Shown: positions 2,642 through 50,421 of the stretch, piece after piece
How positions within the stretch are numbered: position 1 is the stretch's first letter
How the letters are laid out: each line of letters begins with the position of its first letter
Origin: a bacterium
GTDB taxonomy: Bacteria > Patescibacteriota > UBA1384 > CAILIB01
DNA length: 64,000 nt
NCBI GenBank assembly: GCA_037131105.1
Contig: JBAXRQ010000001.1
Location: 701,465-765,464 of the forward strand
Reading direction: 5' to 3'
Notes under the pieces: model-generated
What the model was told of the DNA's origin: nothing
The model's database searches: none
Seen by the model: the letters and a program-made list of their open reading frames with translations, nothing else
Program-made: the position numbers and the translations under genes

Positions 2642-3450
2642 TGGACGTAGGCCCAGCGGTCTATTCTCAGGTCAACTTTTGAGGTCGTAGTCACCTTCTT
2701 TTGTTGCACCAAGCGGGAAAGGTTGCGAATCTGCACACCTGGATCAGCCAGGCTACTCAGGCGTACCTGCATTCCCGGCTTAGTCACTATTGTCACATCA
2801 TAAGTGGTGTCGGCAACTTCGAAGTGATCAACGGGAACGGTAGGCAGAAGTATTCCCATCTGCTTGGAAACTTCAGCAACAAAAGCCGTGAAGCCGCCAG
2901 CTACCACACTCTGGCCCAGACTGACCGGTAGACTCTTGGTATCCTGCACCTTCGGCAGTGTTGAAATAAGCGTTCCGGCCGGCGTCGATGGAGAGGGAGC
3001 TGAGACAAGCGGATACTGGGCAAAGGCCAGCCCTGTCACATCAAGAAGGGTAAGGTTACTCCCAGAGGTCCAGGCCAAAGCCGGCTGTCGCTCATGCACC
3101 ACCACCCTGATACTGTCAGGTAAACCCTTAAGAATATCCACTGACTGGATGCGCGGGTCAACCATAATCTGGCTACTAACCCTCTCCTTAGGGAAGAACC
3201 AGATCGGATCACCAGTAGGAACCAGTCCCTTGATCTGATCAGCAGATACCAAGCTAGTGCCTTGCACGTCCACCTTGCGCACCGAAAACCAGCCGCTAAA
3301 AAAGACCACATAGAGCAGGCACCCCGCCACAGCCACCCAAAATAGTGAGGATACGAAACGGGCAAGTCCCGCGTAAGAGCGTCGGGGCTTTTGAAGATTG
3401 CCGTAAATCTTCGGCATTTGGCGAGCGTAGTGTCGACGTGACCTGGCCAT
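2638..3450 (-). CDS. ftsQ: Cell division protein FtsQ/DivIB-like (POTRA domain)
   Basis: 270 aa with an N-terminal transmembrane helix followed by a POTRA-like segment (VRKVDVQGTSLVSADQIKGLV). It sits in the dcw cluster directly after the murB genes, and its stop overlaps the recJ start. Confidence 0.55.
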   Translation of the reverse strand: MARSRRHYARQMPKIYGNLQKPRRSYAGLARFVSSLFWVAVAGCLLYVVFFSGWFSVRKVDVQGTSLVSADQIKGLVPTGDPIWFFPKERVSSQIMVDPRIQSVDILKGLPDSIRVVVHERQPALAWTSGSNLTLLDVTGLAFAQYPLVSAPSPSTPAGTLISTLPKVQDTKSLPVSLGQSVVAGGFTAFVAEVSKQMGILLPTVPVDHFEVADTTYDVTIVTKPGMQVRLSSLADPGVQIRNLSRLVQQKKVTTTSKVDLRIDRWAYVQ

Positions 3451-3459
3451 AGCCTTATA

Positions 3460-4413
3460 TTACCATACTCCCCCAAACTCATACCGACAGGAAAGCTCTC
3501 GTCCGCTCTGGGTTTTGACCATAGACTGCATCTCCTCTATGAGTGCTTTAATGTCGGATGAACGGGCAGCAGTTCCGTCAAAGCGAAGGAAATTGGGCAA
3601 ATACCTGTCAGGATATATCCCTCCGACTAGCATTTTTGCCACGCACGCCTCGCGCAGTAGCTGGTCGGCAGTTACATCGTCAAAGTCAGCAAAAAGCGGT
3701 CCGAGAAACCGCCCATTCGGCACCCTTCCTTCTCGTACCTCCGAATAGTCCCGCAGTCTGTCTCTCACCTCGTCCTGACGCAAGCTGGTCAACTGAAACA
3801 GGACGGTCAAAATAATCGGAGAAGGCTCACCGAAGGGGCGAGTGGCCCTCAAATGCTGTAAACGCGTACCACCTTCCGGTCGCTCCAACCAGTCCCGTTT
3901 GTAACGATTTACCGTCGCCTCTCGATCAATCTTGGCAGGAGGCATAATCATGGTCAGGTAGCGAACCGAGGAAAGTAGCGGCTGATCGCCCCTGGTAAGG
4001 CCGGCATACAGCGCTCCGCCCACCGTACCTCCCTCCCCAAAAAAATCAGTAAGACCTCCTAGCCCATGTCCGGCCGCCGTAGCTACGAATCTCGCCAACG
4101 AAAGACCGCTGTCCACTACCACCTGGCTCTTATCTAGGGCAAAGGCACAAGAATCAGCCTGGTTATGGATTATTAGTCCGGGATATCCAGCGTCGGAAAA
4201 TATCATGCCCTGACCCTGGCCTATTACTTGGTAGGGAAGCTGGATATCAATGGCTGCCTTGATAGCGGCCGCCAACTCTACCGTAGTTCGGGCGACTGTA
4301 AAATAATCAGCACTACCGCCGCCGCCCAGCGGATTGAACTCGCCCAAGGGACGCTGTTCCTCAAGGTGAGCCAACTGCTTAAGTAGTCCTAGTCGGTTGG
4401 AGTCGTCGGCCAT
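3460..4413 (-). CDS. Divergent MurB-like FAD-binding protein; a tandem paralog that is probably non-catalytic
   Basis: 317 aa. Matches the MurB template (GGGGSAD...QGQGMIFSDAGYPGLII...GEGGTVGGALYAG), but the region aligning to the catalytic SAGSxFKNP is replaced by GRFLGPLFAD. It sits where ddl is normally found in a dcw cluster. Confidence 0.5.
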   Translation of the reverse strand: MADDSNRLGLLKQLAHLEEQRPLGEFNPLGGGGSADYFTVARTTVELAAAIKAAIDIQLPYQVIGQGQGMIFSDAGYPGLIIHNQADSCAFALDKSQVVVDSGLSLARFVATAAGHGLGGLTDFFGEGGTVGGALYAGLTRGDQPLLSSVRYLTMIMPPAKIDREATVNRYKRDWLERPEGGTRLQHLRATRPFGEPSPIILTVLFQLTSLRQDEVRDRLRDYSEVREGRVPNGRFLGPLFADFDDVTADQLLREACVAKMLVGGIYPDRYLPNFLRFDGTAARSSDIKALIEEMQSMVKTQSGRELSCRYEFGGVW

Positions 4414-27535: not shown

Positions 27536-27651
27536 TCTTGGCGGCGACCTACTTTCCCAGGTCCTTGCGGTCCAAGTATCATCGGCGCTGACGGTCTTCG
27601 CTTCCGTGTTCGGAAAGGGAACGGGCGGTACCCCGTCGCACATACCACCAA
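27536..27651 (-). rRNA. rrf: 5S ribosomal RNA
   Basis: The reverse complement reads CTTGGTGGTATGTGCGACGGGGTACCGCCCGTTCCCTTTCCGAACACGGAAG...GGGAAAGTAGGTCGCCGCCAAG, with canonical 5S helices and conserved CCGAAC/GGGAA motifs. Confidence 0.85.
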
Positions 27652-28190
27652 GACAAAGCACTCTTTACTATCCACACAATTGTGCCGATAGTGTCGGGCG
27701 AATAGCCATCCGGACACCGACAAACCAAGCCGAAGCTCGAATTATCGATGCCGGACAGCATCCACCGCAGATTTTGAAGGCGTTCAGCAAAAGCCAAACA
27801 TTGCCATCACGGCCTGAGCCGTGATCTGGCCATCCCTGCAACCAGGGAAGTTAATTCCAGAAATTACCCGTCACCCTGACGACAGGATGCACCTCTTGCG
27901 AGGTATCTCCTGTCACCATAGGAGTAAAAGTATATGATCAATTAGTACTCCACGGCTGAAACTGTTGCCAGTCTTACACCTAGAGCCTATCAAGGTCGTT
28001 ATCTACAACCGATCTAGAAATCTAATCTTGTGGCCGGCTTCCCGCTTATATGCTTTCAGCGGTTATCCGAACCTAACGTAGCTACCCTGCACTGCCGTTG
28101 GTACGACAACAGGCACACCAGAGGTTAGTCCCCCTCGGTCCTCTCGTACTAGAGGGAGGCCCACTCAAATTTCCGCGCCCACAGAAGATT

Positions 28191-28242
<52 letters not shown>

Positions 28243-28255
28243 TGGCGAACAGCCA

Positions 28256-28286
<31 letters not shown>

Positions 28287-28302
28287 CGACGAGCCGACAT
28301 CG

Positions 28303-28646
28303 TACTATTTTCCAGGATTTCGCCTGGCGCAGACTATATCTTGTTCCTACACTTCGATGGTAGGCCTTCATAAGACACCGTACATAAGTGTCTAAGCCAA
28401 TGATCGTAAGTTTTTGCTGTAGGACTCGGCGTGTTAGCTCTCTAAAAGAAGAAAGCTCTGCTCTTTCGAGCAAGTCGTTACGGGGTCATGCCTCTTGCGA
28501 GACAGACTTCCCACGGTATCGCCCTTGTGCCATAGATAGCGTTTTATCCACGTCTATCTTATGGTCAGTCGGGATTCACCGTTATAAGCCGAATTTTTGG
28601 TATAGGATTACTCCTAAAGCACCCCAATGTTAAATTAGGTGCCAAA
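28303..28646 (-). other. ORF-less ~345-nt intervening sequence in 23S between the equivalents of E. coli U2500 and C2501, in the peptidyl-transferase centre; intron or IVS of undetermined class
   Basis: The flanks GGTTTGGCACCT and CGATGTCGGCTC are contiguous in E. coli 23S. The insert begins AAUUUAACAUUGGGG and ends GGAAAAUAGUA, so there is no canonical terminal G by this alignment. The only ORFs (28189-28473, 28388-28633) run into exon sequence or are antisense. Confidence 0.6.
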
Positions 28647-28679
28647 CCGCGCCGTCGCTGTGGACGCTTGGGCGCGATC

Positions 28680-28710
<31 letters not shown>

Positions 28711-29164
28711 ATGATCGACGCGAATCTCACACTAACGCGTCGGTTCACTACTGCCTACTTTCGTATCTGCTCGGATCGTAGTCCTTACAGTCAAGCTAGC
28801 TTCTGCAGTTGCACTTTGAAGCCTGATTTCCATCCAGGCTAAGCTAACCTTTGCACGCCTCCGTTACCATTTAGGAGGCAACCGTCCCAGTTAAACTACC
28901 CATCAGACACTGTCCTCAGGTCATTACCCTAAGTTAGTATACGTCAAATACAAGAGAGGTATTTCACATTGCGTCTCCACCTCACCCGAAGGCAAGGCTT
29001 CAAAGACTCCCTCTTATGCTACGCATGCATACAACATATACAATGCCAAACTATAGTAAAGCTCCACGGGGTCTTTCCGTCTTTCTGTGGGTAAACGGCA
29101 TCTTTACCGCTATTGGAATTTCACCGATGTCCTCGTTGAGACAGTGTTCAAAACCGTTATGCCA

Positions 29165-29206
<42 letters not shown>

Positions 29207-29925
29207 ATAGGACCGTTCATCAATGTTACGCACAATTGCTTGTGGGCCAGTTATTTCTAACTGACACTGCATGTCGCCATGCAGATCGGACTATATCATC
29301 TCAAGCCTGGCTTGAGTTCGGCGTGTAGTCTCTGAGGATTCCAATCGAAACGAATTTAAGATTTCACCCGAAGTAAACTTGCGTTTGCCTCCGGCATTCA
29401 TGGACTCTCTAGCTTCTAATAACCGCTGCAGTCCCGCTTTGGTTAAATGAGTTTTAGAAAACACCATGTCCGCGATAATGCTGAACACTTCAAAGTCTTT
29501 TCGCTTTTTAGTCTTAAGAGAATACGTTTTAAAGAAGGGAATGATGATATCTCTCAGATCTGTAAAATTACAGACTTCGAAATATCCTACTCCGTCCTTG
29601 CGGAAACGAATTGTCCCACATTCCAAAGTCTCTTGCAGCATCCGAAGGATGTTACCGTCCTTTTGGGATATGTTGAATGACAATCCAACTTTCCACCCTA
29701 TTCCATATGACCGTTTGCGAAAGGAAACATTGAAGCTTCCTTCACCATCAGTAAAACCGACAATATACCAAGCCATATCGGCCGATATCTTTGCAAAACG
29801 CTCAATTGGCCTTTCCTGCTGATTGTCTGCACTTAACGCGTTATCACTGTCATCCATAAATGAATGTTAGTAGCGTAAGATACTCAGATGTTCCAGCAAA
29901 TAGCCAAATTTTATAACTACAATGG
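29207..29925 (-). mobile_element. Group I intron in 23S helix 69, after the equivalent of E. coli U1917, carrying a homing-endonuclease gene
   Basis: The 5' exon ends GGCGGCCGTAACTAT (U) and the 3' exon resumes AACGGTCCTATGGTAGCGAAATTCC. The insert is 719 nt, and its last nucleotide is G (…CAUUGAUG), as expected for a group I intron. Confidence 0.75.
29291..29857 (-). CDS. LAGLIDADG homing endonuclease, single-motif type, encoded inside the 23S intron
   Basis: 188 aa with YIVGFTDGEGSF (the LAGLIDADG motif) near the N-terminus. Its size fits homodimeric I-CreI-like enzymes. It is in the same orientation as the rRNA. Confidence 0.85.
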   Translation of the reverse strand: MDDSDNALSADNQQERPIERFAKISADMAWYIVGFTDGEGSFNVSFRKRSYGIGWKVGLSFNISQKDGNILRMLQETLECGTIRFRKDGVGYFEVCNFTDLRDIIIPFFKTYSLKTKKRKDFEVFSIIADMVFSKTHLTKAGLQRLLEARESMNAGGKRKFTSGEILNSFRLESSETTRRTQARLEMI

Positions 29926-31275
29926 TCAGTTCATAGTTACGGCCGCCATTCACCCGGGCTTCGGATCAAGCCTTGATGTTATCTCAGCTCTCCCCTTAAC
30001 CTTCGGGCATTGGGCAGGCATCACCCCCTATACATCCTCTTGCGAGTTAGCAGGGAGCTAAGTTTTTGCTAAACAGTCGTTTGAACTCTTTTACTGTGGA
30101 TCAGCTTGCGCTGATCAGTCCTTATCCCGAAGTTACGGACGTTGTTTTGCCGAGTTCCTTAACGAGGATTCTATCGATCACCTTAGTCTACTCGACTCAC
30201 CCACCTGCGTCGGTTTGCGGTACGGATCTGTGCCTTAAGTCTCGGACCCTTTTCTAGTCACCTTCGCCCCCACTGTGAACATATCCATAGCACACAGTGA
30301 GCTAAAAAATGCGTCAGGCCGGACATACAACACAAAGTTCAGGAATATTAACCTGATGTCCATCGACTTCCCCCTTCGGGTACGCCTTAGGACCGACTAA
30401 CCCAGGGACGATTAGCGTTGCCCTGGAAACCTTGGGTATGCGGTGGGCAGGTTTTTCACCTGCCAAATTCGTTACTCATGCCAACATTCTCACTTCTGTA
30501 CGCTCCACGTCGGTTTCCACCTTCGCTTCACTGCATACAGAACGCTCCTCTACCGACAGTCATTGACGAATCAACAACTGCCCCGCGTCTTCGGCACAAT
30601 GCTTAGCCCCGTTAAATTTTCGGCGCATGACTTCTTAAATAGATCAGTGAGCTGTTACGCACTCTTTAACTGATGGCTGCTTCTAAGCCAACAGACTGAC
30701 TGTCTTGGAAATCACACAACCTTTTCCACTTAGCATTGATTTAGGGGCCTTAGACGGCGATCTGGGTTCTTTCCCTTTTGACTATGAAGCTTAGCCCCCA
30801 CAGTCTGACTCTGTAACTCAAAGCTGGTCAGAATTCGGAGTTTGGTTGGGTGCAAGAGGCGAACCCCCTACGACCCATTCAGTATCTCTACCTCTGCCAG
30901 AAGCATTACAGGCTATACCTAAATATATTTCGAGGAGAACCAGCTATCTCCCGGTTCGATTGCTATTTTAGCTCTTACCACAAGTCATCCCGCAGCTTTG
31001 CAACGCTGCCGAGTTCGGTCCTCCCGCCCCTTTTACGGAGCGTTCAACCTGCTCATGGCAAGCTCACCGGGTTTCGGGTCTAGTGGCACGGACTACATCG
31101 CCCTATTCGGACTCGCTTTCGCTACGCCTCCAGGATAAACCCCTTAGGCTTGCCCGTACCAGCTAACTCGTTGGCGCATTCTACAAAAGGCACGCCGTCA
31201 CCCGTCCGAAGACAGGCTCCGACCTCTTGGAAGCAAACATGGTTTCAGTACTATTTCACTCCCCTCACCGGGGTG

Positions 31276-31312
<37 letters not shown>

Positions 31313-32203
31313 ATCTTGCAATGTATTTAGCCTTGGAGAGTGATCTCCCCAGATTCCCACCGGATTTCACGTGTCCAGTGGTACTCAGGTACCGTATCAA
31401 GGAGTCTAATGTATTTCGCTTACCGGGCTCTCACCGTCTATGGCCGTCCGTTCCAGGCTCATTCAGCTATACAAAAGATTTCTTACTCCTCGGGATATCC
31501 CCATACGGCCCTACAACCCCGCTATGATAAATCATGCGGTTTGGGCTGTTCCGCGTTCGCTCGCCACTACTAACGGAATCTCGTTGATTTCTATTCCTCG
31601 TGGTACTTAGATGTTTCAGTTCCCACGCTTACCATCACTACGGATTCGCACCGTAATGTACACCTTAAAGGTGTGGGTTACCCCATTCGGAAATGTCCGG
31701 ATCAAAGCTCTGTTGCCAGCTCCCCGAACCTTATCGCAGGCTCATACGTCCTTCATCGGCATTGCAAGTCAAGGCATCCACCATGTGCTCGTAACGTACC
31801 TTTCTCCTTGAAACATGTCATTGCTGACACATTTCAGGTGACGGGTAATTTCTAGAATAAACTAGGAATCACTCCGCTACTCTCCACACTTTGCAAAGTG
31901 TGGGGCATGAGTAATTTCTGGAAACACATGCATCTCTGCATGCACCCCCGACATTGCTGCCAGAGGATTTTGCCGTTTTACCTTCAAAATCTGATTGTCA
32001 AAGAAATCGATACTTCCGAACTTGCGTCCGGACAACCAGCTCAGAGTGACTCTGAAACGGCATGTCCGCCTGCAAACAAATAAAAAAGAGCGACGAGGTA
32101 GTTGGTATGTACGTACGTTCGCTCGCGAGAGTGGGCCGTTGCTCACTCGATGTCATGATAGCGCACCTGAACGGTGCCTAGAGCATTTCCTGCGTGCCTA
32201 CTT

Positions 32204-38324: not shown

Positions 38325-39062
38325 CTAGAGGTTAGTCCCTCCAGTGTAACTCAGTTTAGTGTCATCAGTCACCCGCTCCCCCAGCACCACCAAGCGATTT
38401 AGATTAGTCAGCAGCGGCCAGCAGGTCACTACCGCTACGCGCTGGGTGCTTGAACCTCCAGCCAGATTAGCCTCGGAAAAGGCCAGAACATTGCGCGGAT
38501 TCACTACCTGGGAGCTCACTACCTTGTAGGTACGGATCTCACCATGGCCAGTGATGACGAACTGGTCTCCCACTTTCGCTTGACCCAGACTGGCAAATAC
38601 CGATGAGTAGGGATGCGGATAGGTGTCGCTGGAATGGCCGGTGACATAGGCCAACTTGGCGCCATCAAGGGTTGATGTGGAGTAATTTAGGCTTACCCCT
38701 TTGGTCAAAGCCGTGCGAATACTATCCCAATCTTGAAAGTTGAGCGGTGAACTAGACGGACTTTCAGTAAACGGCGCATCAATGGCTAGGCGCGGAAATA
38801 CGAAGCGGTTCTGATCAGCCTGATAGTCAGGTGTAGCCGGCTGCTTGCCGATAGCCACCATGATGGCATGGAACTGGGGCTGACTTAGAGACGCAAGGGT
38901 GGCCCAGTTCCAGGCTGCAAAGATGATTACAAAAAGGTAGAACGCCAGCAGAAGCTTCTTGGCGACTGACCGCGCCTTGGAAGAGCGCGGTCGTTCTTTA
39001 TGCGATTGTTCGACGCTTGGCAATGACATTGAGTATCTCCGTTCCCAGCCAGAGTACAGCAC
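38325..39062 (-). CDS. Sortase-family transpeptidase; the exact start is uncertain
   Basis: 245 aa with an N-terminal transmembrane anchor, a catalytic His (AYVTGHSSD), a Cys in the TLxTC-like motif (RVAVVTCWP) and a conserved Arg (NRLVVLGERV). Confidence 0.7.
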   Translation of the reverse strand: MLYSGWERRYSMSLPSVEQSHKERPRSSKARSVAKKLLLAFYLFVIIFAAWNWATLASLSQPQFHAIMVAIGKQPATPDYQADQNRFVFPRLAIDAPFTESPSSSPLNFQDWDSIRTALTKGVSLNYSTSTLDGAKLAYVTGHSSDTYPHPYSSVFASLGQAKVGDQFVITGHGEIRTYKVVSSQVVNPRNVLAFSEANLAGGSSTQRVAVVTCWPLLTNLNRLVVLGERVTDDTKLSYTGGTNL

Positions 39063-40899
39063 CGAGGCCGAGCAGGGAAAGGATAATCACTGAAAGTGGT
39101 GAGCTTGAGTCTCCATCAGTACTGGCTCCGGCGACTTCACCCTTGGTAGGAACGGTTGCCAGAGTAAGCTGCTTACCAGTACTTGAGGTCAGGGTGACGC
39201 TCGGTGTGGCAGCGGCTGCAGCAACAGCTGGATTAACCTGGATAGGAGTAATCGCGAGATTGACCTTCTTGCCACTTGCCGTAGTGATCTTTAGCTCGGG
39301 AACCTGGCCCTGACTGATACTGGGCATCAGCTGCTCAGCGGTAGAAACGACTCCACCCTGATTCTGAGGCACTGCAGGATCGTTCTGCGAGCTACTACTA
39401 CCTGCAGGAGCACTGAAGATATTGATGATGCCAAGGCGGAATTTGCCCTGGATACCGCTCCAGGAGTTGAGGATGTTGATAAGGTTAGCCAGCACGTTCA
39501 CAGAGCCGGTCTTCAGGCCTCCTACCGTAGTGTTGCCTACCAGACTGTTGCCACCCGTGTTGGCATGTACGTTCAGGTGGTTATTGACGGTGGCCTGCTG
39601 GTTTACGGTCAGGTCCTCTTCATTAGTGTTGTTCACACTGTTCTGGTTGTTCGAGTTGCTGCCGGTCTGGGAGTTATCCAGGTGATTGATGACATAGCTG
39701 CCTTCAGGAATGCCTTGGATCTGGCCGTTCCAGTCGCCCATTACATTGACTATATAGAAGGTAGGATCGTCATCATTGGCAATGGTCACCTCGCTGCCGC
39801 CAACCTTGGTCTGGCCGGTAGTGACGTCACCCGACTCGGTGTTACCCGCGACGGTGTTAGAGCCGGTGGTGGCATTGACGTTCACGTCATTATTAGCCTG
39901 TGCGTTCTTGGTGATCTGAATGTTCTTGGTATTGCTGCTGGTCACTGAATTGGCGTTGTTGGAGTTGCTGCCGGTCTGGGAGTTGTCAGAAGGCACGCTA
40001 ATGATAGAGTCAATGTTTGAGGTCAGCAGGGACCAGACATCCACGCTTAGTTCAAGGTTCGGCATCATCAGATTCATGAGGTTGATGACGTTCACCGCGA
40101 GGTTGATATCGCCTGTCTTTAGATTCCCTGCCTTAGTGTTTTGCGCCAGGGTGTTGTCGCCGGTGTTGGCATTTACATCGACATTGTTGTTAGCGGTAGC
40201 CTGGTTATTGCTCACTACCTTCAGAAGGTTGTTAGTGACGAAGGCGTTCCCATTGTCAGAATTGCTACCGGTCTGGGAGTTGCTCTGGCCAGAAAGACTG
40301 GTGCGGGTAGCCGAAGGAGCCAGGTTAATATGGCCGCTGCCGCCAGCATTGAGGCTTTGCATGCCAACACTGCTACCGGGTGCCAGAATTGAGTTGCCCA
40401 CGTTAATCAGGTTGAATGATCCGTTTACGGCGCCGGTGGTGACATCGCCCAGCTCAGTGTTCTGGTTCAAGTCGTTGTTGCCAGTAGTGGCATCGGCCGC
40501 CACATTATTATTGAAAGTAGCCGAATTATTCTCGGTACCAGTCGACGTATTATTGGCCGTGGTGGAGTTCTGGTTGTTCGAGTTGCTGCCAGTCTGGGTA
40601 TTTGAAGCACCACCGCTAGTACCCGTGGCACTGGCTGCGGGAGAGGAGGTAGGATCAGGAGAAGGTGCGGCCTGGGGGGAAGGATCTGGCTGGGGGCCAA
40701 CAAGCCCTATCGGACCGACAACACCTTGGGGACCGACAGGAAGCTGAGGACCGACAGGCTCAACGGGCCCCACCACCGGGGACGGGCTTGGTGAGGGATC
40801 AGGGTCAGCAGCTAAAACTGGACCTGCCAAAGTAAAGGAAAGCAGTACAAAGACGGCCGATCTAATCTGGAGTTTTCGCAGCCAGGACAGATTACTCAT
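38998..40899 (-). CDS. Repetitive Asn/Thr/Gly-rich secreted surface protein, paralog 3: signal peptide, Pro-rich linker, four ~95-aa repeats, C-terminal hydrophobic anchor with a basic tail
   Basis: 633 aa. Signal peptide MSNLSWLRKLQIRSAVFVLLSFTLAGPVLA, then PDPSPSPSPVVGP. Four repeats each begin SQTGSNSNN and contain N-V-x-A-N-T-G-x-N-x-x-x-x-N-T-x-x-G-x-x-x-T-G. The C-terminus is LSVIILSLLGLGAVLWLGTEILNVIAKRRTIA. Confidence 0.6.
   Translation of the reverse strand: MSNLSWLRKLQIRSAVFVLLSFTLAGPVLAADPDPSPSPSPVVGPVEPVGPQLPVGPQGVVGPIGLVGPQPDPSPQAAPSPDPTSSPAASATGTSGGASNTQTGSNSNNQNSTTANNTSTGTENNSATFNNNVAADATTGNNDLNQNTELGDVTTGAVNGSFNLINVGNSILAPGSSVGMQSLNAGGSGHINLAPSATRTSLSGQSNSQTGSNSDNGNAFVTNNLLKVVSNNQATANNNVDVNANTGDNTLAQNTKAGNLKTGDINLAVNVINLMNLMMPNLELSVDVWSLLTSNIDSIISVPSDNSQTGSNSNNANSVTSSNTKNIQITKNAQANNDVNVNATTGSNTVAGNTESGDVTTGQTKVGGSEVTIANDDDPTFYIVNVMGDWNGQIQGIPEGSYVINHLDNSQTGSNSNNQNSVNNTNEEDLTVNQQATVNNHLNVHANTGGNSLVGNTTVGGLKTGSVNVLANLINILNSWSGIQGKFRLGIINIFSAPAGSSSSQNDPAVPQNQGGVVSTAEQLMPSISQGQVPELKITTASGKKVNLAITPIQVNPAVAAAAATPSVTLTSSTGKQLTLATVPTKGEVAGASTDGDSSSPLSVIILSLLGLGAVLWLGTEILNVIAKRRTIA
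39645..40600 (-). repeat. Near-identical intragenic DNA repeats at ~300-bp periodicity inside the repeat-protein gene
   Basis: Core GAGTTGCTGCCGGTCTGGGAGTT and flanks recur at 39645-39675, 39956-39985, 40256-40285 and 40572-40600. On the coding strand each encodes the NSQTGSNSN repeat start. Confidence 0.7.
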
Positions 40900-41681
40900 A
40901 GCCGCCCTCCGAAGGGTAGAAGCGCCCAGTTGAGCTTACGGGCGGCGGCAGCCAATGGGCCACTGGCAAATACTACGGCGACTACTGCTACCAGAAGTGG
41001 AAGTGCCTCGCTACCGAGAACATTGGCACCTGAGGGGAAATAGCCGGGTGCACTGGCCAATACGACGCTTCCCGCAGGAATACCCTCGCCTCCCCTTCCG
41101 AAGGGAATGACACCGATAGGCACCGGGCTTTCAGGAGTAGGTAAGGGTGTAGGTACCGGCGTAGCGGGAGGTGTGCCCGGGCCATTTACCACAGTAGTCG
41201 CACCAGCGATAATAGTAACCGAGCCCGTATGCAGAGAGCCGACGGTGGTATTGTTGTTCAGATTGTTTCCACCCGTGGTCACGGAAGCCAGGTAGGCGTT
41301 GGTGACGTGGGAGCTATTATTGACGGTCAGAGCGGTATTATGCGCAAAGCTTGCCGTACTGGTGTTGGTACTGCCGCTGCCAGTATTGCTGTTGCTGGAA
41401 AGATAGTTCAGTGTGCCTCCGTTTGAGGCGGCCGCGTAGGTACCAGTGTTAGCCTGAGTGTCGGCATGCATATGTATCAAGGTGTCGCCGGTAGTGACAT
41501 CTCCGGCCGTAGTATTGCCTGCTACGTTGTTGTGGCCAGTGTCTACCGTAAAGTTGAAACTGTTAGTGACGTTCGAGCTGTTAGTGACTGAGGTCGAGCT
41601 GTTAGAAGCCACGGAAGTAGTACTCTGGTTTGTCGAACCGGATCCGGTGTTAGAGTTGTTGGAAGTGATCTGACTGTCCAT
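40896..41681 (-). CDS. Repetitive Asn/Thr/Gly-rich surface protein, paralog 2: no obvious signal peptide, C-terminal hydrophobic anchor
   Basis: 261 aa with the same repeat signature (NTGSGSTN...NNNTTVGSLHTGSVTI). The C-terminus is ALPLLVAVVAVVFASGPLAAAARKLNW. There is an ATGA overlap with paralog 3. Confidence 0.5.
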   Translation of the reverse strand: MDSQITSNNSNTGSGSTNQSTTSVASNSSTSVTNSSNVTNSFNFTVDTGHNNVAGNTTAGDVTTGDTLIHMHADTQANTGTYAAASNGGTLNYLSSNSNTGSGSTNTSTASFAHNTALTVNNSSHVTNAYLASVTTGGNNLNNNTTVGSLHTGSVTIIAGATTVVNGPGTPPATPVPTPLPTPESPVPIGVIPFGRGGEGIPAGSVVLASAPGYFPSGANVLGSEALPLLVAVVAVVFASGPLAAAARKLNWALLPFGGRL

Positions 41682-41715
41682 AGTAGCTCCGTGGTTAAGG
41701 GTACGTTACCGGTGG

Positions 41716-41738
41716 GGCCCGGGGAATATCCCCGGGCC
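41716..41738. other. Perfect GC-rich inverted repeat between paralogous repeat-protein genes
   Basis: GGCCCGGGGaatatCCCCGGGCC: a 9-bp perfect stem with no U-tract on either side, so it is not a canonical terminator. Confidence 0.35.
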
Positions 41739-41765
41739 GACACCCGCATCCTACCTATTCGCTAA

Positions 41766-42629
41766 TTAGTTAGCGACGTTGATAGCGGTGAAGGTCAGGT
41801 TGGCGTCACCAGTTGTGACGTTTCCTGCTGTGGTGTTCTGGTTCACGTTGTTGTTACCAGAGTCTGAGGTAACGCTGAAGCCGTTGCTGATGTTAGCAGT
41901 GTTGTTCACTGTCGTAACATCAGTGCTGACGCTGGTCAGCGAGTTACTGTTGGTGGAGTTCGACCCAGTGTGGTCGTTTCCGCCGCTCACGTTTACCATG
42001 CTAGTACCGCCGCCGCCAAGGATAGCTGAAGCTCCGCTGTTGGCAGTGGTGCTGTAGGCAATGTTGGCATTGGTTCCGCCGGTGCTCACCGATCCCAGAG
42101 TAGTATTCTGGTTGGCGGTGTTGTTACCGGTGTTCACTGCGATGTTTGCAGCGTTAGCTACTGCAGCGCTGTTGGTCAGGGTCGTAACAGAGGTCCGGGT
42201 AATTGTAGCAGTATTGGTGTTGCTAGAATTGGATCCGGTAACGCTGTTGCTGCCGCTTACCATGTCAGTGCTGTTGAACGAAGGCATGATGACGCCTGCA
42301 CCAACATTTAAAGCGTTACTGAAGAGGCCGCCAACGTTAGCTGTACCGGTGTGCAAGCCGCCGACAGTGGTGTTGTTGTTGGTAGCGTTTCCACCGCTGG
42401 TGAAGGCTGCAGCTGCAGCGTTGTTAAGAGCGGCAGCGTTGGTCCAGGCCTGTGTCGCAAGACTGGCTAGAGTCTGGGAGCTGGTGTTTACCGAGTTCGA
42501 GCCGGTCGTGGAGTTGGTATTGGTGATAGTAGCCGATGATGCATGGACCATACCGGCGCTTCCAGCTAGGAGAGCTGTACCGATACCAGCAACCCGCATC
42601 AGGTTACGTACGTGTTCGAGCTTTGTCAT
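41766..42629 (-). CDS. Repetitive Asn/Thr/Gly-rich secreted protein, paralog 1: signal peptide, no C-terminal anchor
   Basis: 287 aa with signal peptide MRVAGIGTALLAGSAGMVHA and the repeats VNTGNNTANQNTTLGSVSTGG and NNNVNQNTTAGNVTTGDANL. This is the first gene of the apparent operon. Confidence 0.6.
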   Translation of the reverse strand: MTKLEHVRNLMRVAGIGTALLAGSAGMVHASSATITNTNSTTGSNSVNTSSQTLASLATQAWTNAAALNNAAAAAFTSGGNATNNNTTVGGLHTGTANVGGLFSNALNVGAGVIMPSFNSTDMVSGSNSVTGSNSSNTNTATITRTSVTTLTNSAAVANAANIAVNTGNNTANQNTTLGSVSTGGTNANIAYSTTANSGASAILGGGGTSMVNVSGGNDHTGSNSTNSNSLTSVSTDVTTVNNTANISNGFSVTSDSGNNNVNQNTTAGNVTTGDANLTFTAINVAN

Positions 42630-42770
42630 AGAACTCCTTTACTTAGTTTGATAGGCTTATAAGTAATGATGCACGGGAGGTAATCGACCGACTCACTCCT
42701 ATGTGCCACTTCATAGTATAGTCGATCTTTTGGCTCGACAGTATGCTCAGCTACATAAAAAGTGTGAGCC

Positions 42771-44999: not shown

Positions 45000-46493
45000 A
45001 TGCCGACGCCATCCATCAGCCTCACCACCGGGGTCAAGCAAGGCGCTGCCGCTCTTGTCGCACTTGCCATGGTTGGCACTGCCGGCACCCTTGCCTACCT
45101 ACAGAACCGTTCCGGCGCTTCAGTAATCTCAGGCGAGAGCCACTACTATAGCCAGGATGCCGCAGTCATGCAGGGGTATTTCACTAACGCCGAACCTGGT
45201 TATAACGCCAGCGTCAGCCTGAGCTTCCAGTCTGGTGACCGGGTACTTCCCGACAAGACAACTGGGACACTGGCAACTATCGACATTTCTAAGGCCGACT
45301 CAGCCTACTGGAGCCAAGCCGCCCCTATCGAAATTACTCATTACCTAGGCCGCAAGACCACCGCTATCGCCACAAACTCAACTACCACGGTGGCGCCGAT
45401 TCCTACCGATGTAAAGAAGTATATCGAAGTCCTTACCATCAACAGCCTCAGACTAGCTCCCCGGCCTGCCACGATGGCGGTGACTGCAGCCTCGCTCGTC
45501 CTCTACCAACAGGCTGGCACCAACGGTGGCGTCAAGTCCGGCAAACTTTTCCAGGACCTCACCAATCTTCTGGAGCCTGCCTTTAGCGCCTACTCCTATA
45601 GCGGAAATGCCGGCGTCACACCCGCACCGACCGACCCTAACCCGGCCTACGCCACTCCAGTCGAGCCTCTGGTAAGCGATACAACACCAGCAGCGTCTGC
45701 AGCCCTTACGGACACTAAGAACAAGCTGGTCAACGATGTCCGAAGCTATCTCGTCACCACCGACTCACTAAATTCTTACGCCCAGGGCAACGCTCTCACC
45801 ATTCCTGCTAACTACCTTCTGACCACTACCGACCTCAATCTGCTAGAAGGGTTTATCATGGAGAAATACTCACTGCTACCCAACTACAACCGTATACAGA
45901 CGGTCATCGCCCGTTTCATGACCAATCCTTCGGATCCCTCCTTCCCGAACCGGGCCATTATTACCGAGGCCTCCAATGACCTACTGGTAGCCTATACCTA
46001 TACACCCGTCATTGATCCTACTGCTAATCCTCCTACCCTTAACTCTTACCTCCCTGCAAACCTACTGATCGCCAAGCCTGCTCTTTCAGGGAGCTACACC
46101 GTATTCAAAAGCAACGGTACCCAGGTTTATTCCCTGAAAGGCTTCTCGTTGCCTGACCTTGATCCTACCACCGTCAGTTCGACCGATAGCTTCACCCTGC
46201 GAGCCAACGCCAACTTCTACGACTACCGGACCGACTCGCGAAACCCGACCATTACGCCAGCCAAAGTCACCCTATCATTTAACCACGATGCCACCAGAAA
46301 CATCGAGCTGACCAACGTAAGCATTATCAAGGTCAACTCCAACGATACGGACAGAGTACTGGTGTCGAAGCAGTATGCCGCCTTCGCCGACCTGGACAAG
46401 TCCTCAGCCTTTAAGGTGGCTACCGTCTCAGGACGCCGGCTGTTCACCTACTCGACAGCAACCCCCACGCCAAGCGCCAGCCCGACTCCTTAG
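45000..46493 (+). CDS. Hypothetical secreted or anchored Thr/Pro/Ala-rich protein
   Basis: 497 aa. The N-terminal hydrophobic anchor is AAALVALAMVGTAGTLAYL; the tail is low-complexity, ATPTPSASPTP. Confidence 0.4.
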   Translation: MPTPSISLTTGVKQGAAALVALAMVGTAGTLAYLQNRSGASVISGESHYYSQDAAVMQGYFTNAEPGYNASVSLSFQSGDRVLPDKTTGTLATIDISKADSAYWSQAAPIEITHYLGRKTTAIATNSTTTVAPIPTDVKKYIEVLTINSLRLAPRPATMAVTAASLVLYQQAGTNGGVKSGKLFQDLTNLLEPAFSAYSYSGNAGVTPAPTDPNPAYATPVEPLVSDTTPAASAALTDTKNKLVNDVRSYLVTTDSLNSYAQGNALTIPANYLLTTTDLNLLEGFIMEKYSLLPNYNRIQTVIARFMTNPSDPSFPNRAIITEASNDLLVAYTYTPVIDPTANPPTLNSYLPANLLIAKPALSGSYTVFKSNGTQVYSLKGFSLPDLDPTTVSSTDSFTLRANANFYDYRTDSRNPTITPAKVTLSFNHDATRNIELTNVSIIKVNSNDTDRVLVSKQYAAFADLDKSSAFKVATVSGRRLFTYSTATPTPSASPTP

Positions 46494-47154: not shown

Positions 47155-47913
47155 CTATTTAAATACAAGATAGGCCTTCTGGCCATCCTGGATGTTGTCA
47201 GGGTCCCAGTCATGGATAGCATTATAGAACGGCTGGTAGTCGTAATGGTAATGCAGCCCTCGCCAGGTCCCCGGCTCATTGGTAATGATCCCGGTTGCGT
47301 CATAGCCGGTAGCCACCAGCATGTGGTAATTAGGCCCGCCAGCACTGAAGTAGGGATTAGGCAGCAACTTGCCAGCCATGCCGAGGATGACCGGATGCCC
47401 AGCCGCCAGCTCCTGTTTTACCTGATCTATGGAATCGATGGAAAGCACTTTGCCGTTATTCATCCCATAATCGTCCTTAGCAATCTGGTTGAGCTGGTCC
47501 AGGGTAATGCTCAGGCCGTATCCATGAGCCTCCTCCCAGTGCACCAGGGCGGTAATCTCGGTATCAGCCTGGGTAGGCGAAGAGATCGGGGTACCGTCCA
47601 GGAAATGCTTGACCATGATCAAGCTGGTCTCTTCGCAAGCGTCCTCATGTAAGGCGTCCCAGACATTGAAAGGAGCCTGCAGAGTGTAGGGCACGGTTAT
47701 TAGGGTAGACGCGGGCAAAGGAGAGCTACTAGGCGTGGCAGCAGGAGTCGCAGTAGGCTTGGCAGTAGGAAGCGTGGTGCCGACCTGGGTATTGCCTGCC
47801 TCGATATCGCCTAGTTGACTGTACTGGACGTGGATGGCATAGGCAATTCCCGCTACAGAGATACCGAGAGCGGCAACCAGGAAAGCGATGAGATAGCTTA
47901 CGCCGTTTTTCAT
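47155..47913 (-). CDS. Peptidase_C39-like (papain-fold) domain protein, membrane anchored
   Basis: 252 aa with a signal anchor and a Pro/Thr linker. TLQAPFNVWDALHEDACEETSLIMV gives the Q…C nucleophile region, and YHMLVATGYD gives the His. Confidence 0.5.
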   Translation of the reverse strand: MKNGVSYLIAFLVAALGISVAGIAYAIHVQYSQLGDIEAGNTQVGTTLPTAKPTATPAATPSSSPLPASTLITVPYTLQAPFNVWDALHEDACEETSLIMVKHFLDGTPISSPTQADTEITALVHWEEAHGYGLSITLDQLNQIAKDDYGMNNGKVLSIDSIDQVKQELAAGHPVILGMAGKLLPNPYFSAGGPNYHMLVATGYDATGIITNEPGTWRGLHYHYDYQPFYNAIHDWDPDNIQDGQKAYLVFK

Positions 47914-47934: not shown

Positions 47935-50421
47935 TTAAAACACCACAACGCCCATAGCCCCAAAGGCACTCCAGTTCGACTGCAGCTGAGCCGTAGTCCA
48001 ATGCAAGCGGCCGAAGATGGGATCGTTGATGATGAATCCGGTAGGATGCGCGACCGGTCCGGTGAAACCCACTAACAGGCGCACATGTTCACCTATCCAG
48101 CCGTTCACAGCCCGGCCGGCCGGAGTCACCCAGGGATCAGGCCGCGGATTACTACCGGCCACTCCCCAGAAGACGACGGGGTTTCCGGCGGCAATGTTCG
48201 AAGCCACGCTAGCGGCACTCAAGGTAAGTATCTGCGAGGAACGGTATTGGTTGGCCACGTTAGCGATGGGAGCCGTATACACCCCATACCCGGTCGAGTC
48301 CTGATGACCGTTCACATCGCCGACAAAGGCCGCATAAGGATCACCCCAGACATTCCCACTGCGAGGCGTCGTGTCCACCGGGAGGGCACCCAGTACGGTA
48401 GCCTCGCTGACGCCAACCCCCTTGTATCTGAGGGCCATGGTAAGCGATGCCGCCTCGCAGGAAAGCGGCTTCTGTTGGTAGTACACCGGAATAGATAACA
48501 GCGTCGACGACTCCTCAGTCTGGAATGAGCTAGAGGCAACACTCGTGGAGGGAAGCCCGATCTGACTTACCACTCCGGCTGCCACAGTGACTTGGTACCC
48601 AGCATCCTTACTAAGGCTGGCGGCATAACTCATGGTCTGTCCTGACCAGCTGAATGTACCTGCGACGGCAGGAGAGATCGAGAAGGCCTGCTGGGCCGAG
48701 TCATGGTCTACAGGCTGATCAAAGGCTACCTTTATCGGTGTGCCCACACTGACTCCCCCGCTCCCAGAACGCGGCGTAATCGAGCTTACCCGTACATGCC
48801 CGATAGTAGTAAAGGTGAACGACGCGGCATCGGGAAGAAAGCCTTCGTGGGCGTCCTTCAGGCCCTTGGCCACCGTGACGGTATATTTGGTATCCAGCTG
48901 TAGAGCGCCGGTCATGGTGTAGACGAGGGTCTTGTTGTCTACCCACTTCCAGGTCCCAGCGACTGCAGGCTGAACCGTAATCTGGGAAGTCGGATCCACT
49001 GAGGCCATTGCCTCGCTAAACGTGAGTGTTAGTGACTTCTGGCTGAGCAGTACCCCGCCGCCCTGTGGCGTGAAGCCGCTGATACCTGGCGCCCCTTTGG
49101 TAGTAAATGAGGCAGTCGCCACCGTGACAGGCAGATCGGTGGAGTTGCGCAGGGTGCCGTCTTCACCATAGATAGTCAGAACCCGTTTGACCGCCAGACT
49201 ATAGTCAGTACTCTGGTCGAGACAGCCCTTCGGGGTGAGCGTATAGGTCTTGCCGTCACTGCTTAAAGCGCTGGTCAGGTCGATGGCAGGAGTCATCTGA
49301 AAACTGAACTCGGCCACATGGTCTGCCGACTCGTTCAAGGTGACCGTTATAGGGTCGCAGATGCCTACCTGCTTGGAATCGGCACTCACTGATACGTTCT
49401 TCACGCTGGGAAGCGCCGGAGTCTTAAAAGTAAGGCTGTAGTCGCTGTTTTCGCGGCTCAGGACATTGGCAAGGTGAGTAATCCTAAGAGTATAGGTGGT
49501 GCCAGGCTCCAGGTGCTGGCTTGGCGTGAAGATCAGCTGCCTGACGAAGATCCGCTGAAGGTAGGAGTCCGCGAAAGAAATGTCACCCTTCACTGGCGGT
49601 GAGAGAGTCACTTCTATCTGGCTGCGGTTTATGGGGCGGTCAAAGGTAACGGTAATAGGGGCTACCAGGCTTTCCAGCTGGGTGCCGTCAGTCGGTGCAG
49701 CGGCATTGGCTACAGGCAGACGGATAAAACTGTCATAGGTCCAGTACGTCCCCCCGGCAACCGCCACTGCGAACACAAAGACCGCCACCTGCTTCATGAA
49801 GTGGTGGCGACGATGAAACGGATCGGTATGCTCAGGATCAGTAGGCAGGCGATAGGCAGCACAAACCGGACCCCACAAAGCCCCGAACAGGAACACCATG
49901 GCAATCTCCTCAATGGGATGGCCAGCCGCCACTATGCCCGAGAACGAGGAGATGGTCTCCACAGGCCCCACTACTGGAATGCTCAGGAAGTAATACAGCG
50001 CGACATAGAATATCCCGAATCCCAGGGCCGAGGCCAGGGCGTCCCAGATCAGTGCTCTCCCCATCACAAAGCTTGCCGCCAGGATGAGCAGCAGGGCTAT
50101 GCCAGCCGCTACCAGCATCTGCACATGGAGTAACCAGAGTAACAGAAGGGCAAGCAAAGGACCGGCCAATAGCCAGCGCAGGTGAATGCGGGAAGGATGC
50201 AGAGCCGGAGTCAGCAGTCGGCGTAGAGTCAGGCAGTAGATGACGTCGGCGACGCCTCCCAGCACGAAAACGGTGACAAGCTGCCACCAAAAGCTGCCAT
50301 AAAATCCTATACCGGCAAGCAGGGGCAGTCCAAGCAGCGGCAAGGTGACAAAGGCGGCAACCAAGCCCTCCTTCCAGAGAGGACGGATGGGGGCTGCCGG
50401 TCTGTTACCAAAGGTGAGCAT
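47935..50421 (-). CDS. Large membrane protein: N-terminal ~6-TM region + four or more bacterial Ig-like (SbsA/Big_5-type) repeats + C-terminal Peptidase_C39-like domain
   Basis: 828 aa. After the N-terminal hydrophobic block come repeats of the T-V-T-F-D-R-P...Y-T-L-x-V type, and the C-terminus has QQKPLSCEAASLTMALRYKG...GEHVRLLVGF. Confidence 0.55.
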   Translation of the reverse strand: MLTFGNRPAAPIRPLWKEGLVAAFVTLPLLGLPLLAGIGFYGSFWWQLVTVFVLGGVADVIYCLTLRRLLTPALHPSRIHLRWLLAGPLLALLLLWLLHVQMLVAAGIALLLILAASFVMGRALIWDALASALGFGIFYVALYYFLSIPVVGPVETISSFSGIVAAGHPIEEIAMVFLFGALWGPVCAAYRLPTDPEHTDPFHRRHHFMKQVAVFVFAVAVAGGTYWTYDSFIRLPVANAAAPTDGTQLESLVAPITVTFDRPINRSQIEVTLSPPVKGDISFADSYLQRIFVRQLIFTPSQHLEPGTTYTLRITHLANVLSRENSDYSLTFKTPALPSVKNVSVSADSKQVGICDPITVTLNESADHVAEFSFQMTPAIDLTSALSSDGKTYTLTPKGCLDQSTDYSLAVKRVLTIYGEDGTLRNSTDLPVTVATASFTTKGAPGISGFTPQGGGVLLSQKSLTLTFSEAMASVDPTSQITVQPAVAGTWKWVDNKTLVYTMTGALQLDTKYTVTVAKGLKDAHEGFLPDAASFTFTTIGHVRVSSITPRSGSGGVSVGTPIKVAFDQPVDHDSAQQAFSISPAVAGTFSWSGQTMSYAASLSKDAGYQVTVAAGVVSQIGLPSTSVASSSFQTEESSTLLSIPVYYQQKPLSCEAASLTMALRYKGVGVSEATVLGALPVDTTPRSGNVWGDPYAAFVGDVNGHQDSTGYGVYTAPIANVANQYRSSQILTLSAASVASNIAAGNPVVFWGVAGSNPRPDPWVTPAGRAVNGWIGEHVRLLVGFTGPVAHPTGFIINDPIFGRLHWTTAQLQSNWSAFGAMGVVVF

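Follow-up and report, generated by a model that had tools for sequence, protein, structure and literature searches.

The locus described here lies in a 64,000-nucleotide stretch of patescibacterial DNA (Bacteria; Patescibacteriota; UBA1384; CAILIB01; GenBank assembly GCA_037131105.1, contig JBAXRQ010000001.1, positions 701,465 to 765,464 of the forward strand), referred to throughout as the window, with coordinates counted from its first letter. Four open reading frames (ORFs), all on the minus strand, make up the locus: three paralogous, Asn/Thr/Gly-rich repeat proteins, termed P1, P2 and P3, and a sortase. The evidence presented below supports a single functional locus in which these genes join a sortase to an undescribed repeat family. 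Homologues of the three paralogues recur in other genomes and metagenomes as distinct types, designated b (P1), a (P2) and c (P3).

P1 (41766-42629, minus strand; 287 amino acids, aa) is the b-type paralogue and a candidate secreted major subunit. It begins with a basic-hydrophobic Sec-type leader ending VHA/SS, carries three repeat cores (aa 39-110, 128-199 and 218-287) and terminates in ...FTAINVAN, with no C-terminal hydrophobic segment. Inspection of its mature form of 257 residues reveals 76% N/T/S/G/A, no Lys, no Glu, a single Arg and five Asp. Orthologues of 286-291 aa share this architecture. P2 (40896-41681, minus strand; 261 aa; MEI6478126.1) is the a-type paralogue and a candidate sortase substrate. 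Its start, MDSQITSNNSNTG, falls already inside the first repeat, so that P2 has no signal peptide; the ATG is preceded by GGAG, and stop codons interrupt the frame 8 codons before it. Two repeat cores (aa 9-80 and 97-168) are followed by a Pro-rich linker, the pentapeptide YFPSG (aa 214-218), a single hydrophobic segment, placed at about aa 218-248 or more narrowly at aa ~227-247, and a charged tail of 14 aa. Two other accounts of the P2 start were considered and rejected. Read-through or fusion of P1 and P2, which share a frame, is contradicted by three in-frame stops in the spacer between them, and a frameshifted or mis-called start is contradicted by the closest homologue, from an independent metagenome, which keeps both the start and the gene order.

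P3 (38998-40899, minus strand; 633 aa; MEI6478125.1), the c-type paralogue, overlaps the P2 gene by ATGA. Its signal peptide and a Gly/Pro-rich (V)GP(Q/x)xx tract (aa 42-70) precede four repeat cores (at aa 100, 207, 306 and 409), a low-complexity linker of 95 aa, a possible degenerate motif, EVAGAS (aa 588-593), a transmembrane helix (aa 601-627) with a conserved W-x3-E, and a KRRTIA tail. An initial annotation of this DNA had described four co-oriented genes, with a leader and no anchor on P1, an anchor and no leader on P2, and a signal peptide, stalk, four repeats, transmembrane segment, KRR tail and ATGA overlap for P3; all of the ORFs were recovered at the coordinates it had given, and each of these features was found.

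The fourth ORF (38325-39062, minus strand) is open to a GTG at 39062, although an ATG at 39029, with GGAG 8 nucleotides (nt) upstream, is the more probable start and defines a sortase of 234 aa (38325-39029). The protein has an N-terminal transmembrane anchor (aa 26-48) and belongs to the sortase superfamily, matching Pfam PF04203 (peptidase C60) at E=3e-12 with 46.8 bits against a cut-off of 26.6, and TIGR01076 with 47.4 bits against a cut-off of 39.35. Its catalytic triad consists of His132 (TGHSSD), Cys203 (VTCWP) and Arg212 (RLVV). These residues are invariant in four orthologues and in register with the solved sortases 2xwg and 4g1h, such that the triad claimed by the initial annotation held on careful alignment.

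All three paralogues are built from one repeat. The nine units (three from P1, two from P2 and four from P3) align without a gap across 72 residues and give the consensus NS.TGSNS.N...(14)...N.A..nN...(7)...TG.N..n.NT..G.v.TG. Between-paralogue phmmer scores are 48-70 bits, whereas composition-preserving shuffles (300 per comparison) never scored above -1.6 bits. Given the gap-free alignment and scores this far above those of shuffles, the repeat is not an artefact of composition, in agreement with the earlier claim that it is shared by all three proteins. On sequence grounds, it is a previously unclassified domain of ~72 residues, rich in Asn, Thr and Gly, and used in three formats. As an observation on its composition, the repeat also exists in strongly acidic, Asp/Glu-rich versions, for example in b-type proteins of Berkelbacteria (locus L004, 5001-5870), as opposed to the almost uncharged Asn/Thr/Ser version of P1, which suggests lineage differences in surface chemistry or cation dependence.

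The family to which this repeat belongs is large and diverse in format. P3 homologues number 110 in a collection clustered at 90%, all of them hypothetical proteins, and those with a named host are all from Patescibacteria (Berkelbacteria, Saccharimonadales, Daviesbacteria and 'Patescibacteria group'). A profile hidden Markov model of the a-type proteins, searched against metagenome cluster representatives (clusters at 50% identity), recovered 1,585 with E<=1e-3, of which 256 reached E<=1e-30; here too, those with a named host are all patescibacterial. Members range from 2 to 7 or more repeats and from 180 to 1,180 aa.

Described families were sought behind the repeat, as the initial annotation had proposed, and none emerged from Pfam, NCBIfam or the sequences of the PDB. 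Across P1-P3 and 59 homologues, profile scans with the first two left the repeat unmatched, the sole match being Collagen (PF01391) in six of 39 c-type homologues; the Chaplin domain was without a match in the same proteins. PDB sequences gave 0 matches to a b-type profile at E<=10. The suggested likeness to curlin repeats, which consist of S-x5-Q-x-G-x-G-N-x-A-x3-Q units, was not confirmed, since neither Curlin_rpt nor any other Pfam repeat family matched the paralogues at E<=1. An AlphaFold2 model of P3 (39-sequence alignment) presents four beta domains at a predicted local distance difference test (pLDDT) score of ~90, separated by disordered linkers, together with a confident C-terminal helix (aa 602-632, pLDDT ~90). 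The predicted fold is weakly β-helix-like and not immunoglobulin (Ig)-like. A Foldseek search of the model against the PDB returned nothing significant (best E=1.4), and against the BFVD viral library the best E was 6.7e-3 with template modelling scores of ~0.05, which supports no fold assignment. The corresponding model of P1 (20-sequence alignment) reached a pLDDT of 48.5 and was unusable.

The four genes recur together. The cassette is present in at least 11 loci, comprising the window and 10 others from Berkelbacteria, Saccharibacteria and unclassified Patescibacteria (listed as L001/L005, L003, L004, L006-L010, L013, L014 and L015); L008 and L009 are metagenome-assembled genomes of Saccharibacteria. 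A sortase-profile scan of genome contigs yielded six loci, and a scan of metagenome sortases yielded seven, of which one duplicates L006 and one is a contig that ends upstream of its VTCWP sortase; near the remaining sortases of the metagenome scan (28-34% identity), the repeat genes were not found. Across loci, the a protein (~280-340 aa) consists of a signal peptide, two repeats, a linker rich in Pro and Gly and, at its C-terminus, a hydrophobic segment; b (~286-301 aa) of a signal peptide and three repeats, without an anchor; and c (~600-760 aa) of a signal peptide, a Gly-Pro tract, four repeats and a transmembrane helix. The cassette sortase of other loci (~193-217 aa) has a VTCWP active site and is encoded 2-20 nt downstream of c. 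The genes run a-b-c-sortase, with a and b exchanged (b-a-c) in the window and in L015, its nearest relative. The c proteins of other loci are 33-48% identical to P3. Since the genes around the cassette differ from locus to locus, the four genes constitute a conserved unit. The synteny that the initial annotation proposed to look for was thus found in 10 further loci and, with a repeat unmatched in Pfam, NCBIfam and PDB sequences, bears out its suggestion of an undescribed sortase-linked repeat locus. Full-text literature searches returned no description of the repeat family, the cassette or the FFxAG motif discussed below, although coverage was incomplete and absence is not proven.

More distant relatives (27% identity; L011, 3330-7836, and L012, 3338-8217) keep the combination of small secreted, small anchored and large paralogues, and their secreted proteins are shorter, with two repeats and 193-196 aa. 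Their sortase is either located elsewhere or missing: a QTCTG-type sortase lies nearby in L011, and L012 has no sortase within 6 kb.

P1, P2 and P3 contain no LPXTG, as the initial annotation had noted, and no LAXTG, NPQTN or LPNTA. It had further supposed that a non-standard sorting motif stands in their place; a conserved motif does precede the hydrophobic segment of P2, and the P3 C-terminus offers no clear equivalent. In P2, YFPSG (41028-41042, minus strand) lies 8 residues before the hydrophobic segment and is proposed as a non-canonical sorting motif. Among the small anchored members of the family, 29 of 32 share the motif [FYLI][FVI][PAQ][AS]G, usually as FFPAG, in a layout of motif, gap of 5-9 aa, ~20 hydrophobic residues and charged tail; the three exceptions have IIPAG, MPVTG and, in homologue P0105, no comparable motif. 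Wherever an a-type protein was found in a cassette locus whose sortase is of the VTCWP type (10 of 10), its motif is of the FFxAG form. At the same position, distant relatives have LPVTG (L012), LPYTA (L011, beside the QTCTG sortase) or MPVTG, which suggests that motif and sortase type changed together. The FFxAG-type motif may accordingly be a recognition site that co-evolved with the sortase, for which APGYFPSGANVLG is a candidate peptide and FFPAGS a variant form.

These patterns bear on whether the cassette proteins belong together at all. The paralogues could be independent adhesins or coat proteins from a rapidly expanding repeat family of the candidate phyla radiation (CPR), with a general housekeeping sortase that happens to share their operon. 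In favour of this, the family is large and varied in architecture, its distant members can occur without a sortase within 6 kb, as in L012, and sortases are common and widespread in CPR genomes (PMC6744442). Against it stand the fixed trio of two-, three- and four-repeat proteins plus sortase, kept in lineages with c identities of only 33-48%, and the constancy of FFxAG beside VTCWP sortases. Moreover, L001 and L004 each hold a further, divergent sortase in the vicinity (26% identical to the cassette enzyme), so the cassette sortase is not the sole one available in these cases. We consider the absence of a joint structure quite improbable. The same two loci have extra flanking genes (L001, 2357-3809 and 8618-9808; L004, 2351-3717 and 8729-9871), namely the second sortase on the opposite strand, a transmembrane protein of ~240 aa and a downstream Peptidase_S8, none of which adjoins the cassette of the window.

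Inspection of the c-type C-termini gives a different picture from that of the a-type proteins. Conservation is strongest in the transmembrane helix itself (W-x3-E and the basic tail), and the residues upstream hold mixed strings (VLGA[TS], [VT]AG[ST], ...AYA and some LP[VE][TA]G) that share no common alignment column. With the helix conserved and the upstream strings unaligned, c is treated as a retained membrane protein; the end of P3 has more the look of a conserved membrane helix than that of a clear sorting signal. The opposing view is that c, alone or with a, is the true substrate: a degenerate LPxTG-derived motif 10-35 residues before the transmembrane helix (EVAGAS in P3) would be cut and c moved to the wall, while FFxAG would be merely juxtamembrane. 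This draws on the position of the sortase, directly downstream of c in every cassette and often by only 2-20 nt, on LPVTG, LPETG, LPEAG or LPAAG found 25-40 residues before the transmembrane segment in several c-type relatives, and on the recurrence of VLGA[TS] or [VT]AG[TSA][ST] in cassette c proteins. However, these strings fail to form a single conserved column, and known sorting signals have a much shorter spacer between motif and helix. The helix, modelled at pLDDT ~90, is the most conserved C-terminal feature, which speaks for a retained, functional anchor and against a discarded signal. Sorting of c by this sortase is therefore judged unlikely.

The b-type proteins lack an anchor in every homologue and end in ...N-x-x-N without a hydrophobic segment. 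Among the a-type proteins there is a subclade without signal peptides, formed by P2 and homologues P0112 (L015/L016), P0134 and P0261, whose members start M-[DT]-x4-S-N-x2-TG. In both loci where it can be checked (the window and L015), the missing signal peptide coincides with b-a-c order. An independent metagenome contig has the same P2-type start, the same b-a-c order and the hairpin described below; in view of this agreement, the lack of a P2 signal peptide is conserved and is not an assembly error.

The absence of sorting signals from b also weighs on the organisation originally proposed for the locus, that of a sortase-assembled pilus with the paralogues as major and minor pilins, which in such a covalent pilus would be linked through isopeptide bonds made by the sortase. 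In sortase pili each subunit bears a sorting signal, a lysine serves as the nucleophile, the pilin domains are Ig-like and the sortase is a class C enzyme with a lid. The cassette resembles Gram-positive pili of the SpaA, RrgB and FimA types in that a sortase gene is clustered with genes for paralogous secreted proteins, here three subunits that differ in anchoring. In addition, the nearest PDB and NCBIfam relatives of its sortase are class C (pilus) enzymes (2xwg, E=1.3e-9; NF033745, 53.7 bits). The resemblance does not extend further. The score against NF033745 stays under the class C cut-off of 160, and none of the NCBIfam sortase class cut-offs was reached, with classes D, E and GN also far below. 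The region between the transmembrane anchor and beta1 (F-x-[FY]-P-x-L-x-I) is variable in the alignment, and the class C lid motif DP[FWY] is not conserved there; an invariant DW was considered as a lid and rejected because it sits after beta1. Without any sorting signal, b-type proteins cannot act as acyl donors. Lysine is missing from mature P1, from aa 1-213 of P2, and from 8 of 32 b-type and 3 of 29 a-type homologues, which makes a conserved pilin-motif lysine impossible. Finally, neither the Pfam scan nor the structure search of the P3 model produced a CnaA/CnaB or other Ig-like match. On these counts the pilus organisation was not upheld, and we regard it as very improbable.

Two candidate regulatory elements flank b. 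A copy of GGTCGAT, GGTCGATT (42682-42689, minus strand), lies 53 nt upstream of the P1 start codon. In a 7-mer alignment of the window with the a-b spacers of L001, L003, L004, L007-L010, L013 and L014, nine of the ten, the window included, have this word about 55-100 nt before the b start codon, and L014 has GGTCGAA. GGTCGATW is not a common word in the window, with four copies against 2.9 expected across the 64 kb. The element is a possible promoter or operator. The second element is a GC-rich stem-loop, GGCCCGGGG-ATATT-CCCCGGGCC (41716-41738, minus strand), in the 84-nt spacer that follows P1 (41682-41765). This spacer has a folding free energy (dG) of -41.2 and a z score of -4.9, and the other ten spacers downstream of b have z scores of -2.9 to -7.8. 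A strong GC-rich hairpin without a U-tract thus lies 3' of b in 11 of 11 loci, whatever gene comes next: in the b-a spacer of the window, at 435-524 of L015, and in the b-c spacers of L001, L003, L004, L007-L010, L013 and L014. Stem sequences vary by locus while the position is kept, and a-b spacers fold more weakly. The hairpin could be an attenuator or a 3'-end stabiliser that puts b in excess over a and c. Together, hairpin and 7-mer are consistent with regulation of b apart from a and c.

The organisation of the cassette resembles that of chaplins or curli, a likeness of arrangement in which membership fails on sequence. In Streptomyces, the long chaplins ChpA-C carry a sorting signal and are paired with class E sortases, and the short ChpD-H are secreted. 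Both systems have paralogues derived from one small domain, some with a sorting signal and a sortase and others anchorless and secreted, and a non-covalent, beta-rich surface assembly is the predicted outcome. The two show no sequence relation, however: the cassette repeat is 72 aa long and polar (N/T/S/G), whereas the chaplin domain is hydrophobic and ~40 aa; the motifs are FFxAG and LAXTG; and the hosts are CPR bacteria and Actinobacteria, respectively. Nothing among the chaplins corresponds to c, with its transmembrane anchor, four repeats and Gly-Pro stalk. Curli (CsgA/CsgB) and Fap (FapC) likewise combine imperfect Asn/Gly/Thr-rich repeats with a secreted major subunit and a surface-bound paralogue. 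They differ in lacking a match between Curlin_rpt and the cassette repeat, which is ~3 times longer, in the presence of a sortase in the cassette, and in its lack of a CsgG/E/F-type outer-membrane secretion apparatus, the host being presumed monoderm.

Two further systems invite comparison. Collagen-like surface proteins of bacteria include Scl1/2 and BclA, and the c-type Gly-Pro tract that follows the signal peptide recalls them, as does the Collagen match of six c-type homologues. Runs of at least four G-X-Y triplets occur in 12 of 38 c-type homologues, with up to 13 triplets. In contrast, the longest uninterrupted run of P3 is five triplets, its tract is mostly a VGPxxx hexad, and it has no Collagen match. 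The c tract also occupies the distal N-terminal end, and anchorage is by a transmembrane helix and not LPXTG. The Gly-Pro tract is truly collagen-like in some homologues only. The Pam pili of CPR bacteria share with the cassette their restriction to CPR and their origin as extracellular assemblies from previously unannotated genes. They are built from two-domain Ig-like pilins, PamA and PamB, by donor-strand exchange with chaperone-like partners, and neither a sortase nor Asn/Thr/Gly repeats are reported for the pam operon (bioRxiv 10.64898/2026.03.03.709456). The architecture in that description differs from that of P1-P3 and sets the two apart.

The model that we favour, tentatively and at somewhat short of even confidence, is that a is fixed to the wall by the sortase and c is retained in the membrane, with secreted b attached to both by non-covalent contacts. 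Sec would export b and c, and in most lineages also a. The membrane-anchored sortase, through its H-C-R triad and VTCWP active site, would read the a-type signal of [FY]F[PAQ][AS]G, hydrophobic segment and charged tail, cut it, and link a covalently to the cell wall. The c protein would remain a type I membrane protein through its W-x3-E helix, projecting four repeats and the Gly-Pro stalk outward. Anchorless b, apparently expressed separately in view of its conserved upstream 7-mer and strong 3' hairpin, would supply the bulk subunit and bind non-covalently, through beta-edge or stacking contacts, to the related repeats in a and c, producing a fibre or a coat. The sequences themselves establish the arrangement, paralogy and synteny of the genes, the conservation of the motif and the catalytic residues; the cleavage site, the wall attachment, the co-assembly of b with a and c, its stoichiometry and the fibre-or-coat outcome are inferred.

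Several observations weigh against anchoring of a by the cassette sortase. The a-type proteins of the window and P0112, P0134 and P0261 have no signal peptide, leaving their route to an extracytoplasmic sortase unexplained, and confidence in the mechanism is lower at the window locus because P2 is one of them. The connection between the sortase and FFxAG is one that we infer, and since other residues can take the place of its Pro (FFAAG, FFQAG), the motif departs from every sortase signal so far characterised. The a-type tails, at ~15-25 aa, exceed those of classic sorting signals, the sortase gene adjoins c and not a, and the more distant family members represented by L012 lack a nearby sortase.

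Elsewhere in the window, an ORF of 497 aa (45000-46493, plus strand) with an N-terminal hydrophobic segment, Thr/Pro-rich regions and no Pfam or NCBIfam match may encode an uncharacterised surface protein. Two Peptidase_C39_2 proteins (47155-47913 and 47935-50421, both minus strand) are encoded at a distance of ~5 kb from the cassette, and one of the two is a fusion with Big_5 Ig-like domains. In L014, the cassette has a C39_2 gene directly upstream of it (3122-3829); a link to the cassette is possible and unsupported. The 23S rRNA gene (27922-31806, minus strand) spans 3,885 nt against a model of 2,925 nt, with 5S at 27536-27652 (minus strand). Inside it, in a low-GC stretch (GC 0.47), is a LAGLIDADG endonuclease ORF (29291-29857, minus strand), and the insert looks like an intron-encoded homing endonuclease of the sort often reported in rRNA genes of CPR bacteria.

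Patescibacteria, or CPR bacteria, live attached to other cells and may account for a large part of bacterial diversity, yet to our knowledge the genes behind most of their surface structures have still to be assigned. A sortase-linked surface-protein locus is of a known sort; here the substrate family and the candidate motif are new, and the sortase clade is unclassified. A candidate sortase motif paired with a matching sortase clade is open to direct peptide testing, and a sortase of new specificity, if confirmed, would be useful as a protein-ligation tool. The three-component model of surface assembly can be searched for in cultivable Saccharibacteria that carry the cassette. In its broadest and more doubtful form, which we consider a minority prospect, the cassette would represent an unrecognised CPR-wide class of fibre or sheath, in which a new beta-solenoid-like repeat fold is used in three stoichiometrically tuned formats and nucleated on the wall by a VTCWP sortase clade reading a proline-optional FFxAG, with one subclade exporting its anchored subunit without a signal peptide; such a class could provide the envelope or attachment structure that has long been sought in many ultrasmall episymbionts. 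The cassette supplies a large, unannotated repeat family restricted to CPR bacteria; it is probably specific to Patescibacteria, and it probably builds an undescribed structure on their cell surface.

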